Below are positions 1-6,914 of a stretch of 7,675 nucleotides of DNA, piece after piece. The stretch's first letter is position 1; every line of letters starts with the position of its first letter. The notes below the pieces were generated by a model. That model did not search any database. It worked only from the letters and a program-made list of their open reading frames with translations, and was not told the DNA's origin. Source of the DNA: a virus (lineage: Duplodnaviria > Heunggongvirae > Uroviricota > Caudoviricetes); the IMG/VR virus record IMGVR_UViG_2547132269_000011, positions 1 through 7,675 of that record; one strand, given 5' to 3'. The translations under genes were made by a program, and so were the position numbers.

Positions 1-1212
1 GTGGCAAGAACGACACGCCCCCTGACCAACACAGAAGTTCTGCGCGCTAAAGCGTTAGAAAAGGATCTAACGTTACATGATGGCGATGGCCTTTTTCTGC
101 TCGTTAAAACGAACGGTAAGAAGTTGTGGCGTTTCCGTTATCAACGTCCAGCAACAAAACAGCGGACAATGATGGGGCTTGGTGCTTTCCCCGCCCTTTC
201 ACTTGCTGATGCTCGACGGTTAAGAGCGGATTACCTTGCTTTGTTGGCTAATGGTATAGACCCACAAGTTCAAGCTGAATTTATCGAAGAACAACAACAG
301 ATAGCTCTAGACAGTATTTTTTCGACTGTTGCGACCAACTGGTTCCAGATAAAAAGCAAAAGCGTTACCCCTGATTACGCTAAAGATATATGGCGCTCAC
401 TGGAAAAAGACGTATTCCCTGCCATCGGGGAGATTCCTGTCCAGCAAATAAAAGCCCGAACACTAGTTGAAGCCCTTGAGCCAATCAAAGCTCGTGGAGC
501 ACTCGAGACAGTGCGCCGACTTGTACAGCGCATTAACGAGATAATGATTTATGCCGTAAACACTGGTCTGATTGATGCCAATCCAGCATCAGGTGTTGGG
601 ATGGCCTTTGAAAAGCCCAGAAAACAAAACATGCCGACGCTGAGGCCAGAAGAATTACCAAAGCTGATGCGTTCTTTGTTCATGTCAAATCTGTCTGTTC
701 CGACTCGCTGTCTCATTGAATGGCAGCTTCTGACTCTAGTGCGTCCTGCTGAAGCTTCCGGTGCTCGATGGGCAGAGATCGATCTCGATGCAAAGCTCTG
801 GATGATTCCAGCCGAACGGATGAAGGCCAAACGAGAGCACATAGTTCCTTTATCCACGCAGGCATTAGAAATTCTAGAAGTGATGCAACCTATTAGCGCA
901 CATCGTGAGCATGTTTTCCCAAGCAGAAATGACCCTAAACAACCAATGAATAGCCAGACTGCGAATGCCGCGCTTAAGCGCATTGGTTATGGTGGGAAGC
1001 TTGTTGCTCATGGATTACGTTCTATAGCAAGTACAGCACTAAATGAAGCTGGTTTTAATCCGGACGTAATTGAAGCGGCACTTGCTCACAGTGATAAAAA
1101 TGAAGTTCGAAGAGCATACAATCGTTCAACTTACCTTGAACAACGTATAGACTTGATGAATTGGTGGGGTGAATTTGTGCACAACCGCCACCGCCTCATG
1201 CAAGCGATTTAA
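1..1212 (+). CDS. int: P4-family tyrosine integrase (site-specific recombinase); the 5' end may be clipped by the window edge
   Basis: 403-codon ORF from a GTG at position 1 to TAA at 1210-1212. N-terminal arm-binding-type region (LTNTEVLRAKALEKD...DGDGLFLLV...ANGIDP) and C-terminal catalytic motifs typical of tyrosine recombinases (AHGLRS H-x-x-R box; RAYNRSTY with the candidate catalytic Tyr). Sits at the element edge, as P4-like integrases do next to a tRNA attachment site. Confidence 0.9.
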   Translation: MARTTRPLTNTEVLRAKALEKDLTLHDGDGLFLLVKTNGKKLWRFRYQRPATKQRTMMGLGAFPALSLADARRLRADYLALLANGIDPQVQAEFIEEQQQIALDSIFSTVATNWFQIKSKSVTPDYAKDIWRSLEKDVFPAIGEIPVQQIKARTLVEALEPIKARGALETVRRLVQRINEIMIYAVNTGLIDANPASGVGMAFEKPRKQNMPTLRPEELPKLMRSLFMSNLSVPTRCLIEWQLLTLVRPAEASGARWAEIDLDAKLWMIPAERMKAKREHIVPLSTQALEILEVMQPISAHREHVFPSRNDPKQPMNSQTANAALKRIGYGGKLVAHGLRSIASTALNEAGFNPDVIEAALAHSDKNEVRRAYNRSTYLEQRIDLMNWWGEFVHNRHRLMQAI

Positions 1213-1239
1213 TAAGATTGCACAGCAAAGGAGTCTTAA

Positions 1240-2578
1240 ATGCCAAATAACTACCATCAATACATCGAAGACGTTAGTGATGATATAAAGACATGTCTTG
1301 AAGGAATGGGATGCCAACCCATACTTTTTGTTGGATCGGGATTAACCAAGAGATATCTTTCTGGCCCAAACTGGGAAGAACTTCTTCAGCAACTTGCTAA
1401 TGAATGTCCTAACATCGATAAAAGATTTGCCTATTATAAACAGAAATACCCCGAGTTGATTGATATCGGCAGTGTATTTTCTGATTCTTATAACGAGTGG
1501 GCATGGGGTGATGGAGAGAAAGAATTTCCAGCAGAGTTATTTGATGCAGGCAATGAGCCAAGTATTTATTTTAAATACAAAGCATCTAGTATTTTCAACT
1601 CATTGTTACAAGAAAAAGAAATCGTAAACAACGGTGAAATTGAACTTCTGAGAAAGATTCACCCTCATTCAATCATCACAACAAATTACGACAAATTACG
1701 ACAAATTACTTGAATCGATATATCCTGAGTTTACCCCCATTATAGGCCAAAAAATCCTTTACGCTAATCACGGTAGCATTGGTGAAATACTTAAAATACA
1801 TGGTTGCTGCTCCACTCCTGAAAGCATAATAATAAACCGCGATGACTACGATGACTTCATAAAGAAGAAGAAATATTTAAGCGCAAAACTGCTTACTTTC
1901 TTTGCTGAACACCCTCTTCTATTTATAGGTTACAGCGCAGAAGACTCGAACATAAAAAACATACTATCTGATATTGATGAACTACTTTCAGAAAATGGAG
2001 ATGTCATTCCAAATATATACATTTTAGAATGGACGAGCAAACAAAATGAAAGTGAATACCCACGCCGTGAACGGCTGATTCAAGTATCTGCAAATAAAAG
2101 CATTAGAATAAAAAGTATAGTAGCAAATGACTTCTCTTGGGTATTTTCAGCGTTTGGCGCGAACAGAGCACTTGATAACATAAATCCAAAATTATTGAGG
2201 GCACTTTTAGCTCGCACTTACGATCTCGTCAGAACTGATATACCTCGCAATCCTGTCCAAGTTGATTACCGAGTTTTATCAAGCATTAGCGAGTCAGAAG
2301 GTGAATTAGCGAAATTATATGGTATCGCCACATCGTCAGATGGTATGGCATTTAATGCCAGTTATCCTTTTACTTTAACCACGCTAGGGCAATCACTTGG
2401 TTTCAAAGGCTGGCATGATGCGAACAAACTATTAGAAGTAGTTAAAAACATCACGAACGTAGACATCAAGACATTCGATAACAAATACCACTATGCAATA
2501 ATGAACGGTGATGAGATTCAGTCCCATAGATATTCAAACTATCTTCGAGAACTCCTCGAAAAGGTTAGGGATGGATAG
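1240..2578 (+). pseudogene. SIR2-like (SIR2_2 / ThsA-DSR-type NAD+-dependent) candidate antiphage gene, interrupted by a +10 bp frameshift; repaired product about 442 aa
   Basis: ATG at 1240 with AAGGAG 6 nt upstream. Frame 1 gives 157 aa with a Gly-rich loop (PILFVGSGLTKRY) and ends ...IITTNYDKLRQIT* at 1711-1713. Frame 2 is open without stops from 1712 to 2578 and continues the domain (ESIYPEF...KIHGCC...LLFIGYSAEDSN...). Deleting one 10-bp unit joins them as ...ITTNYDKLLESIYPEF.... The Asn motif and the His motif fall on opposite sides of the shift. Visibly AT-richer than the flanking P4 core genes. Confidence 0.75.
1681..1710 (+). repeat. Three tandem copies of the 10-bp unit ACAAATTAC(G/T); two copies are coding-native, the third is the frameshifting insertion
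   Basis: Sequence acaaattacg acaaattacg acaaattact at 1681-1710. 10 is not a multiple of 3, so the extra unit shifts frame 1 into frame 2 and creates the TGA at 1711-1713. Confidence 0.9.
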
Positions 2579-2637
2579 GAGTTTGAGTTAGGAATAAAGG
2601 CTCCATAATTATTCATATAGCCTTACTACTTTTTATG

Positions 2638-2659
2638 GCCGCTTTAATAGCGGCTTTTT
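2638..2659 (+). terminator. Candidate intrinsic terminator downstream of the SIR2-like gene
   Basis: Stem GCCGCT (2638-2643) / AGCGGC (2649-2654), loop TTAAT, followed by TTTTT (2655-2659); 60 bp after the cargo stop codon. Confidence 0.5.
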
Positions 2660-2795
2660 CACAGCATTATTCATGCTTCTAGCACGATATGATGAACCGC
2701 AATAATCATAGCTAACAGGATTAATTTAAAGCATTACTCCTCGACTGAAGCGTGCTGTCATGCGAAAAAAATTTAAACTACCACGTTAGCGCGCA

Positions 2796-5129: not shown

Positions 5130-5287
5130 CGTTGATGGGCTTTTTATGCTGTTTATTACTGTTTATTTTTATTAATTAACTGAAATAAATAAGAAAAAAC
5201 AATTTGCATTTCACTATAAAAAACTCCAGGTCCTTCAGAACCCTTTGAGACCCTTCCAGTCTGGATGGATAAAAAACACACAGCCAT

Positions 5288-5305
5288 TGTAAGGTTGCCG
5301 GAACA
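5288..5305 (+). promoter_or_regulatory. Candidate Delta/Ogr-binding dyad (TGT-N12-ACA) for a PLL-like late promoter upstream of vis
   Basis: TGT (5288-5290), 12 nt, ACA (5303-5305), about 110 bp upstream of the vis ATG. Pattern match only. Confidence 0.3.
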
Positions 5306-5407
5306 AATTCCCCCTGTTGCGTCTGCTGAAAATATTCACAAAATAAAGCGCTACCCGAAGCCGGACGGACTTATCCGGTGCTGTATGGACATTAACGAGG
5401 TAGCCCG

Positions 5408-5674
5408 ATGCAAGCTGTTTTTTCTTCCCCGTCTCCCGCCCCTGTTACGCCACTGATGCCGCTGCCGGACATCACGCAGGAGCGTTTTTTACGTCTGCCG
5501 GAAGTGATGCACCTGTGCGGCCTGTCACGCTCGACCATCTATGAACTCATCCGTAAGGGGGAATTTCCGCCGCAGGTGAGTCTTGGCGGTAAAAATGTGG
5601 CCTGGCTGCACTCTGAAGTCACCGCATGGATGGCCGGACGCATTGCCGGACGCAAACGGGGGTACGACGCATGA
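5408..5674 (+). CDS. vis: Vis / AlpA-family helix-turn-helix regulator, 88 aa
   Basis: 88-aa ORF with GAGG 7 nt upstream of the ATG. Contains the AlpA-type motif [48 protein letters not shown]. Length and position (between the late and early promoters) match P4 vis as I recall it. Confidence 0.75.
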
Positions 5675-5709
5675 TGATGCCCGCTCTGCAAAAAGTCCCT
5701 TTTTCTGGC

Positions 5710-5739
5710 TTGCCTTTTTCCGGCATTTGCGGATATAGT
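5710..5739 (+). promoter_or_regulatory. Candidate sigma70 promoter (PLE-like) driving the immunity/early operon
   Basis: TTGCCT (5710-5715), 18-nt spacer, TATAGT (5734-5739), just downstream of vis and about 30 nt upstream of seqA. A 5' stem-loop GCTGCCG/CGGCAGC follows at 5746-5765. Confidence 0.45.
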
Positions 5740-5769
5740 TTTTCCGCTGCCGCAAAATCGGCAGCCGGG

Positions 5770-5794
5770 CGTAGGAACCCGTGTAACTCGAAGG
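5770..5794 (+). promoter_or_regulatory. seqA-like target site for the immunity RNA
   Basis: CGTAGGAAC (5770-5778) and CTCGAAGG (5787-5794) recur in the same order at 6013-6021 and 6046-6053. Both blocks are complementary to blocks in 5967-5987. Confidence 0.55.
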
Positions 5795-5929
5795 CGACAT
5801 ATGACGCGCCATGCGTCTTTTTTTGTGTCGCAATCAACGCCACAGAGCGCCAGATTATGGTGTGGCGTGTGGTTTGCCGTGCAGGTATGATCCTGTTCGC
5901 AATCGCATGTTATGCCACTGAGTCAATGG

Positions 5930-6010
5930 TAGCTCAGGCGGGGCAGCCTCCGGGCTGGCCGGTATTCTTCGAGGCCGGTATTCCTACCCCCGTCTGGGCT
6001 ATCGCCATCG
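5930..6010 (+). ncRNA. cI: P4-type CI immunity RNA region containing seqB; exact ends not determinable from sequence
   Basis: CTTCGAG (5967-5973) and TTCCTAC (5981-5987) are antisense to the CTCGAAG and GTAGGAA blocks of seqA and seqC. Local hairpin CAGCC/GGCTG at 5944-5957. The position between the two target sites matches the P4 immunity architecture. Confidence 0.45.
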
Positions 6011-6012
6011 AG

Positions 6013-6055
6013 CGTAGGAACTCCGGCGATAGCAGTTATTTGCTACTCGAAGGAG
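6013..6055 (+). promoter_or_regulatory. seqC-like target site for the immunity RNA, overlapping the kil ribosome-binding site
   Basis: CGTAGGAAC (6013-6021) ... CTCGAAGGAG (6046-6055). The GAAGGAG Shine-Dalgarno for the ATG at 6064 lies inside the target, so RNA pairing would occlude translation initiation. Confidence 0.55.
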
Positions 6056-6063
6056 ACTGCCTT

Positions 6064-6261
6064 ATGGCTACAACCCTTACCCCTTCACACCCTGAATTTG
6101 TCTTTGTGTTTGCGGCTGTCCGTCGCGCAGACCGTCATCCCCGTATCTGCATGCTTCGCACCGTCGCCGGTGATGAACGCAGCGCCCGCCGTTCCCTTGT
6201 CCGTGACTATGTGCTCTCCCTTGCTGCCCGTCTGCCGGTGGTGGAGGTGTCCCGTGCGTAA
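6064..6261 (+). CDS. kil: Kil-like small protein, 65 aa, first translated gene of the early operon
   Basis: ATG at 6064 with GAAGGAG 8 nt upstream, 65 codons, stop at 6259-6261. Length and placement immediately after seqC match my recollection of P4 kil. The protein sequence itself was not recognised independently. Confidence 0.55.
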
Positions 6262-6541
6262 TAAAAAAGCCCCTCAGACCGTCTCAGCACGTCATGACGC
6301 CCGTGAACACCTCAGCATTGAGGCTTACCATAAGCTCAACCGCGCCAGCGCCGTATCCCAGTTTGTTGGGGGTGATTTGATTCACCGTGAACTCTCCGGC
6401 CTGCATCAGCTCTACATTCCGCATATTTTCAGCTACCTGAATGAAGATATTGATTTTGTGCTGAATGAGCTGAAAGCCAAAGGCCTGTGCCGCGATTTTC
6501 TCGCCCAGCAGAAAGACCGGGGAGACAAGACGCATGTTTGA
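6254..6541 (+). CDS. Hypothetical P4-like early protein, 95 aa, GTG start
   Basis: GTG at 6254 preceded by GGAGGTG. The track ORF 6098-6541 begins further upstream but that extension overlaps kil in another frame. Stop overlaps the start of the next ORF. Confidence 0.5.
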
Positions 6542-6914
6542 TTTTCCCCAGCCCGGTGAGATTTACCGTTCTGCCGGTTTTCCCGATGTGGCCGTGGTCG
6601 GCATTCTGGAAGACGATATTCCGTGGGAAATGCCGTACCGCTGCCCGGACATTGTCTGGAATCCGTACCGCCGTAAATTCAGTATCCTTGTGCGTATCCT
6701 CGCTGACGGGCGCACCACAGACATCCCGCTGGGGCGTTTTCTGCGGGAATTTACCTGTGACCGTCCTGACCTGTTCAAACGCAGCCCCGTAAACCGGCAT
6801 GCGGTACTGAAAGAAATGGCCGGAGACCCGGAATTACAGAAATGGCGGGAAATTCCCCGCACGGAGCCTGACCCGGAAACCACCCCGGATAACAGTTACC
6901 GCAATTATCTGTAA
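6534..6914 (+). CDS. Hypothetical P4-like early protein, 126 aa
   Basis: ATG at 6534 overlaps the upstream stop (ATGTTTGA), which suggests translational coupling. GGGGAGA lies about 10 nt upstream. No recognisable domain. Confidence 0.6.
   Translation: MFDFPQPGEIYRSAGFPDVAVVGILEDDIPWEMPYRCPDIVWNPYRRKFSILVRILADGRTTDIPLGRFLREFTCDRPDLFKRSPVNRHAVLKEMAGDPELQKWREIPRTEPDPETTPDNSYRNYL

Follow-up and report, generated by a model that had tools for sequence, protein, structure and literature searches.

A predicted antisense RNA immunity switch in a P4-like satellite prophage of Escherichia coli and the diversity of its recognition blocks

The DNA analysed here is a stretch of 7675 nt from IMG/VR record IMGVR_UViG_2547132269_000011 (henceforth the window; positions below are window coordinates, and the features described lie on the + strand). 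It derives from a P4-like satellite prophage of Escherichia coli, and the region that runs from a predicted promoter at 5710 to the end of the kil gene at 6261 is very probably the immunity switch of that element. Positions 5400-6700 are 95% identical to phage P4, and the window as a whole matches P4-like prophages in ~3000 complete E. coli genomes. In the closest of the genomes we compared (L002), the element adjoins ssrA and its genes are ordered int, a SIR2-family cargo gene, psu, delta, sid, vis/alpA, a long open reading frame (ORF), epsilon, orf151, a DUF5375 gene and the alpha primase gene. The map of P4 is shared (int, psu, delta, sid, vis, eta/kil, epsilon and orf151), with alpha falling beyond the window and being present in L002. 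Switches of this kind have been known since the 1990s from P4, phi R73 and the c4 RNA of P1/P7.

Repeats, RNA elements and genes of the locus

The module is marked by two direct repeats. The first, CGGGCGTAGGAAC at 5766-5778, recurs as CGAGCGTAGGAAC at 6009-6021 with a separation of 243 nt, and the second, ACTCGAAGGCGAC at 5786-5798, recurs as ACTCGAAGGAGAC at 6045-6057 with a separation of 259 nt. Between them lie the inverted copies CTTCGAG (5967-5973) and TTCCTAC (5981-5987). Counting both strands, CTCGAAG is found four times in the window, three of them in the module, where shuffled sequences lead one to expect 0.70 copies; GTAGGAA is found three times, always in the module, where 0.51 copies are expected. 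These blocks define three sites, seqA, seqB and seqC:

5771-5777, + strand: seqA block b1, GTAGGAA; complement of 5981-5987; 5 of 7 pairs covary
5787-5793, + strand: seqA block a1, CTCGAAG; complement of 5967-5973; 6 of 7 pairs covary
5967-5973, + strand: seqB loop a', CTTCGAG; loop of the second CI hairpin
5981-5987, + strand: seqB segment b', TTCCTAC; single-stranded, after hairpin 2 and before the 3' strand of the basal stem
6014-6020, + strand: seqC block b2, GTAGGAA; 5 of 7 pairs covary, 100% of cells paired
6046-6052, + strand: seqC block a2, CTCGAAG; overlaps the kil Shine-Dalgarno sequence, AAGGAG, at 6050-6055

Blocks b1 and a1 are each complementary to b' and a', respectively, at all seven positions, and the unpaired spacers between the two blocks are 9 (seqA), 7 (seqB) and 25 nt (seqC) long.

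The RNA elements in which these blocks reside are as follows:

5710-5739, + strand: predicted PLE-like constitutive promoter, TTGCCT, 18-nt spacer, TATAGT (consensus scan)
5733-5785, + strand: c4-a1b1 target motif (Rfam RF03163, 49.1 bits)
5746-5823, + strand: seqA leader, an IsrK-like RNA (Rfam isrK, RF01394, 72.3 bits)
5803-5823, + strand: intrinsic terminator closing the leader, 5803-5817 plus a T-run (terminator scan)
5922-6009, + strand: CI RNA of the C4 family, 88 nt (Rfam RF01695, full-length match of 74.4 bits; gathering score 45)

All three Rfam matches exceed the gathering scores of their families, and they lie on the + strand in the order found in P4. The predicted promoter is sigma-70-like, agrees with the consensus at 9 of 12 positions, is the sole match within 5200-6600 and is identical in sequence to P4 at the aligned positions.

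Folding of the 88-nt CI RNA gave a minimum free energy of -48 kcal/mol with a z-score of -4.7. The structure consists of a basal stem (5928-5943 with 5988-6003), which covaries, and two internal hairpins; a' stands in a hairpin loop and b' is unpaired. The leader begins with a hairpin at 5746-5765, followed by a hairpin that holds b1 in its loop, a single-stranded a1 and the terminator. Each of the two helices between leader and CI RNA therefore has one partner displayed in a hairpin loop, b1 in the leader and a' in the CI RNA, a layout that is typical of fast antisense recognition. We also observed a perfect 9-bp hairpin, 5998-6006 with 6025-6033, that would show b2 of seqC in an 18-nt loop. 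This hairpin uses the 3' strand of the CI basal stem, making the two folds mutually exclusive, and its arms covary across genera (for example GCTATCGCC/GGCGATAGC, GCTACCACC/GGTGGTAGC and GCCACCGCC/GGCGGTGGT). It may be a conformational switch or the structure of the unprocessed transcript.

An initial annotation, made from the sequence without database searches, had proposed that seqA, CI RNA (seqB) and seqC form an immunity module of P4 type, that direct repeats about 245 bp apart flank both antisense blocks, that the complementarity is bipartite with unpaired spacers of unequal length, and that seqC covers the kil ribosome-binding site; it had asked for a folding check of the CI RNA. On each of these points it is borne out by the repeat positions, the three Rfam families, the identity to P4, the measured spacers, the predicted fold and the overlap of a2 with AAGGAG.

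The protein-coding genes in and around the module are:

5408-5674, + strand: vis/alpA homologue (P4 orf88), 88 amino acids; Pfam Phage_AlpA, E 7e-21, with P4 ORF88 at the aligned position
5671-6261, + strand: eta ORF, 196 amino acids from the ATG at 5671; in the kil frame, running through seqA, CI and seqC
6064-6261, + strand: kil, 65 amino acids, Icd-like; NCBIfam phage_ICD_like (NF033153), E 1.6e-21
6254-6541, + strand: epsilon (helper derepression protein), 95 amino acids with a GTG start; Pfam Derepression family, E 8e-51, and P4 annotation

The kil Shine-Dalgarno sequence stands 8 nt before the kil ATG, and the eta ATG overlaps the vis stop codon as ATGA. By the P4 map, epsilon is the first downstream gene under control of the switch.

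Outside the module, two other genes of the window differ from those in L002. A 10-nt unit, ACAAATTACG, is present at 1681-1709 in ~2.9 tandem copies as opposed to 1.9 in L002 (4681-4699), and the extra copy frameshifts the SIR2-family cargo gene (1240-2598), such that its ORF ends at 1713, as compared to a protein of 453 amino acids in L002. In the orf151 homologue (6534-6914), 75 nt (25 codons, in frame) are absent at ~6840 relative to L002, leaving 126 amino acids as opposed to the 151 of L002 and P4.

Pairing of the blocks in related elements and in P4

To sample close relatives, IMG/VR was scanned with the invariant 5' half of the CI RNA, leaving the loops free. This gave 73 loci, of which 70, including the window, P4 and E. 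coli L002, were usable. They contain seven forms of a' and four of b' in 13 combinations, and most of the variation among them falls in the blocks and in the stretch from terminator to CI RNA. All four intermolecular helices are paired at seven of seven positions in 66 of these 70 loci. The seqA-seqB helices are 99.6% and 97.2% paired, with 5/7 and 6/7 pairs altered on both sides. A covariation score calculated over 54 pairs (the seqA-seqB helices together with the CI and leader stems) was reached by none of 500 shuffles, and sliding the partner by 1-3 columns in the same test lowered pairing to 36-45%. In the seqC-seqB helices, pairing extends to 96.7% of cells, and both sides are altered in 11 of 14 pairs; for this count the segments were re-anchored on GGAG, as MAFFT had placed a gap inside the a-block. 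Covariation of this kind is far stronger evidence than the count of repeats in a single sequence. Two of the close loci, L028 and L070, carry a seqA of another class together with a seqC that matches their own CI RNA, a combination that suggests recombination at a point between seqA and CI.

The same relationship holds at greater distance. A scan of one genome per species yielded 78 loci from genera that include Edwardsiella, Citrobacter, Raoultella, Pantoea and Erwinia, as well as Serratia, Pectobacterium, Dickeya, Brenneria and Hafnia. Rfam found isrK followed by C4, in that order, in all 40 of the cross-genus loci on which it was run. The complements of a locus's own a' and b' are exact at fixed upstream and downstream positions, four sites in all, in 34 of 42 loci, and when both loops were taken from another locus a four-site match was obtained in none of 1076 combinations. 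In 38 of the 42, the exact a2 match abuts GGAG and an ATG follows a few bases downstream. The complementary blocks, on whose conservation in related elements the initial annotation had staked its proposal, are thus retained in close and distant relatives alike.

As a reference for the immunity region of P4 (PLE-seqA-cI-seqC-kil/eta) we used X51522. Promoter, leader, terminator, CI RNA, seqC, kil, eta and epsilon are ordered and spaced in P4 as they are in the window, the Kil proteins are identical, and the surrounding satellite genes are shared. The alignment of the two is near-invariant apart from three short patches, and these patches are the recognition blocks:

seqA blocks: window GTAGGAA ... 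CTCGAAG; P4 GTGAGAA ... TTCACAG
seqB blocks: window CTTCGAG ... TTCCTAC; P4 CTGTGAA ... TTCTCAC
seqC blocks: window GTAGGAA ... CTCGAAG; P4 GTGAGAA ... TTCACAG

At each of the three sites, 5 of 14 positions differ from P4, three in block a and two in block b, and all of the changes are compensatory. The remaining differences are a 9-nt in-frame indel in the spacer between leader and CI RNA, a compensated +1/-1 indel pair in seqC, and integration next to ssrA of the window-type element in the closest genome. The initial annotation had suggested an immunity specificity different from that of P4 and had looked to spacer length as its source. The first half of this suggestion is supported by the matched substitutions; the second we rejected, since the spacers of P4 (9, 7 and 24 nt) are nearly the same as those of the window.

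Pairing energies were predicted as duplexes of the loops only, because RNAduplex with full-length CI RNA ignores intramolecular structure and gave long spurious duplexes for every pair, which made it uninformative. The predicted values are:

Window CI RNA with its cognate targets: block a -10.2, block b -8.5 kcal/mol
Window CI RNA with P4 targets: block a -2.3, block b -1.6 kcal/mol
P4 CI RNA with window targets: block a -2.4, block b -2.0 kcal/mol

Because cognate pairing is predicted at about -10 and -8.5 kcal/mol as compared to about -2 kcal/mol with the sites of P4, the element is probably heteroimmune to P4. The 7+7 nt of a' and b' determine specificity. There is a precedent in phi R73, a P4-like retronphage and thus a relative of P4 built on the same concept: it is said to be heteroimmune to P4, and its immunity specificity was reportedly ascribed to these same determinants by Sabbattini et al. 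in 1996 (Virology 216:389; cited in PMC7567579).

It might instead be that the module is the same but homoimmune with P4, the five differences per site being tolerated and repression crossing in both directions. We consider this improbable. Block b would still make 6 of 7 pairs if G-U is allowed, and the scaffold and the flanking extensions (CCCC/GGG) are identical. However, homoimmunity would call for seqB loops that are identical or fully complementary to seqA and seqC of P4, and 5 of 14 positions differ; block a, which lies over the ribosome-binding site, differs at 3 of 7 positions, with predicted cross-pairing of -2.3 to -2.4 as compared to -9 to -10.2 kcal/mol for cognate pairs. Moreover, the changes are matched exactly at three sites, both here and in 38 classes of related loci, which is the outcome expected of selection for separate specificity.

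Proposed mechanism and the eta reading frame

In P4, the CI RNA is processed from an untranslated PLE transcript and pairs with seqA and seqC, leading to premature termination and silence of the replication genes (PMC4825925, PMC3632133, PMC10111431), and seqA is needed for establishing lysogeny (PMC4825925, PMC3632133). Using these P4 experiments as a guide to CI processing, premature termination and the role of eta translation, we propose that the window module would work as follows. PLE (5710-5739) would make a transcript whose leader (5746-5823) holds seqA and an intrinsic terminator that leaks. Read-through transcripts would contain the CI RNA (5922-6009), which would be excised and accumulate as a small stable RNA, and its a' and b' would pair with b1/a1 of seqA and b2/a2 of seqC on new PLE transcripts. 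Pairing at a2 would hide the kil Shine-Dalgarno sequence and leave this gene, the first that ribosomes read on PLE transcripts, untranslated; with the C-rich start of kil bare of ribosomes, transcription would stop before epsilon and the alpha primase gene. The satellite would stay quiescent and would resist superinfection by any element that shares its recognition sequences. Once the late promoter upstream is active, ribosomes would run from vis into eta (5671-6261), and translation of eta across seqA, CI and seqC would render those transcripts insensitive to the switch. By analogy with P4, the switch would operate in the window prophage. It would probably ignore the CI RNA of P4.

Termination in P4 was reportedly found to be Rho-dependent by Forti et al. 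in 1999. The strongest C-over-G skew of the region is at 6040-6140, comprising the first ~80 nt of kil, and is weakly suggestive of a Rho entry site.

The anatomy of the module, its homology to P4, the covariation of its blocks and the overlap with the ribosome-binding site, all established above, are joined by conservation of a reading frame. The initial annotation had set aside the long ORF at 5626-6261 as probably not a gene. This part of it does not stand, as the ORF corresponds to the eta gene of P4, with kil nested in the same frame. The start chosen by the ORF caller, 5626, gives 211 amino acids, and in the near-identical L002 PGAP chooses the ATG equivalent to 5671, the one that overlaps the vis stop codon. 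Across genera, the kil frame is free of stops from seqA to the kil ATG (~97 codons) in 40 of 41 loci; the other two frames contain on average 2.3 and 4.2 stops and are open in 0 of 41. Measured end to start, the isrK and C4 matches are 63, 69 or 99 nt apart, with a single exception of 62 nt in which the frame is broken, and differences in spacer length across loci are multiples of 3. Likewise, within any one allele type the 1-nt indels between b2 and the kil ATG offset each other; L027 and L037 depart from this, with uncompensated deletions in their a2 blocks. The eta frame of L037 is also broken, and in the Serratia locus L113 the spacer is 1 nt shorter and the eta frame contains 3 stop codons.

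Between the window and P4, the part of eta upstream of kil shows 17 non-synonymous and 8 synonymous codon differences, as compared to 0 and 3 in kil. These counts indicate that the N-terminal protein sequence of eta is poorly constrained. Together with the conserved open frame and the spacing in multiples of 3, they point to selection that keeps a frame open and translatable more than to selection on any one protein sequence. Pfam Phage_ASH (PF10554) matches amino acids 37-158 of the 211-amino-acid ORF (window 5734-6099) and the NCBIfam Icd-like model covers the Kil part only. Because the one matches the part that encodes the RNAs and the other only Kil, the region is dual-coded, comprising RNA elements and a reading frame. 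In P4, PLE sits within eta, Kil is a truncated Eta made upon occasional read-through, full-length Eta is made solely when transcription starts at the late promoter upstream, in translational coupling with the alpA homologue, and translation of eta prevents termination (PMC10111431, summarising Forti et al. 1999).

PGAP gives the whole ORF the name "Icd-like protein", Pfam treats the RNA-encoding part as the protein family Phage_ASH, and a census of P4-like satellites uses PF10554 as its marker for epsilon (PMC8628076); the real epsilon ORF at 6254-6541 matches PF25738 and not PF10554. Annotation of such regions calls for three overlapping labels: the small RNAs (IsrK-like leader and CI), the nested kil and the eta frame.

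Several points weigh against a working, P4-discriminating switch in this prophage. CI processing, termination and immunity are all carried over from P4 by analogy. The frameshift in the cargo gene and the deletion in orf151 are signs of decay, and the prophage may perhaps be no working satellite. In L028 and L070 seqA mismatches the locus's own CI RNA, such that pairing at seqA is not strictly required for persistence. Finally, the b-alleles of the window and P4 differ by transitions alone, with 6 of 7 positions pairable when G-U is counted, and discrimination may rest mostly on block a.

Taken to its end, the evidence of decay would make the module an inert remnant that regulates nothing, to which we give little credence. 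The tandem-repeat expansion in the SIR2-family gene and the 75-nt loss from orf151 speak for it. Nevertheless, the module has kept all four blocks, its promoter and terminator, the CI scaffold, the eta frame and Kil intact, and the same allele is present in 10 further loci.

A second possibility concerns the sign of the regulation. In the Gifsy-1 prophage of Salmonella, IsrK/STnc1160 is a short RNA that activates translation of an antirepressor-like gene from the long transcript, and an RNA processed from read-through lies downstream (PMC4825925), as the CI RNA does here. The leader ending at 5823 might act in the same way, as an activator in trans or as a decoy that titrates CI RNA, the output being activation of kil and the genes downstream. 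In keeping with this, the leader fits the Rfam isrK model at 72.3 bits with its intrinsic terminator included, and it holds both target blocks of the CI RNA, which it could sequester. However, P4 genetics assigns seqA a role in termination and in the establishment of lysogeny (PMC4825925, PMC3632133); the region shares 95% identity with P4, in which the module is repressive, and its likeness to Gifsy-1 is structural only. We therefore regard an activating leader as an unlikely account of the module, and as a possible extra layer upon repression.

That the conserved feature is mainly protein-coding (Eta/Ash), with the repeats and complementarity arising as by-products of protein or DNA repeats, is scarcely credible: the ORF is indeed conserved, is open across genera and matches Phage_ASH, but the excess of non-synonymous differences in N-terminal eta set against their absence from kil, the coincidence of the variable positions with base pairs that covary over distances of 80-210 nt, and Rfam structure models well above threshold indicate that both layers exist and that the RNA layer accounts for the pattern of variation.

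Diversity of the recognition alleles

Taking all 151 loci together, we found 19 a' alleles and 10 b' alleles in 38 combinations (classes) on a conserved RNA scaffold. The class of the window occurs 11 times (10 besides the window itself) and that of P4 seven times. L002 is 98.6% identical to the window overall, yet 59 differences fall within 5750-6100 and its class is CGTTAGA/TTCTCAC. Such clustering within 350 nt, together with the change of class, is evidently due to an exchange of immunity cassettes between near-identical satellites. The same loop alleles also recur on diverged scaffolds in different genera.

Related modules are found outside the P4-like satellites. Window positions 5723-6034 (the span varies slightly by match) are 77-80% identical to the N15-like phages phiKO2 and PY54, and the Klebsiella phages 48ST307 and KpLi5 also match the seqA-CI segment at 77-80%, the rest of the genomes of these linear-plasmid prophages being unrelated. 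Satellites and telomere phages have the RNA module in common. The c4-icd-ant system of P1/P7 and the related CB RNA system of N15 belong to the same RNA family (Rfam C4 clan) and are laid out alike, as a1b1 / a'b' / a2b2, the last of these lying at the ribosome-binding site of an Icd-like gene. The window differs from c4-icd-ant in that its RNA and Icd-like gene are followed by epsilon, orf151 and alpha rather than by the antirepressor gene ant. P1/P7 and N15 are plasmid prophages, in contrast to the window element, which is a satellite with helper-derepression and replication genes of P4 type downstream.

A motif screen of the loci for retron reverse transcriptases returned one retron-type candidate, L014, a metagenomic P4-like element that carries a St85-family retron as cargo at 876-2769 (minus strand), with reverse transcriptase and effector. 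Its immunity class is CTTTGTT/TTCCTAC. We rejected it as an element of phi R73 type, as the retron belongs to the St85 family and not to Ec73; its a' differs from that of the window.

The three b' alleles most often seen in the E. coli-type close relatives, TTCCTAC, TTCTCAC and TTTCCAC, are only C/T transitions apart, and the a' alleles differ by transversions too. New b' specificities could arise stepwise via G-U wobble intermediates, with pairing never lost.

That loops set specificity has been clear in principle since P1/P7 c4 and phi R73 were studied. Extending it to the population, we tentatively suggest, short of an even chance, that P4-like satellites carry a modular, combinatorial RNA "address code", in which two loops on a near-invariant CI scaffold are combined, each combination is matched at two target sites, and the whole is written inside a translated ORF. 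We found no population-level description of such a loop code in the open-access literature searched. The allele pattern would be in keeping with diversifying or frequency-dependent selection under which satellites avoid repressing one another. Co-resident satellites differ in class in 11 of 12 pairs, and with random pairs differing in 90-96% of cases this test is without power.

The allele of the window is common, the system is already known and Rfam detects it automatically, and a single locus adds nothing on mechanism. What the alleles would provide collectively is a natural library of candidate orthogonal antisense repressor-target pairs. The allele also predicts which P4-like satellites can coexist in one cell and which can exclude each other, and these are elements that shape the spread of P2-like phages and carry defence cargo.

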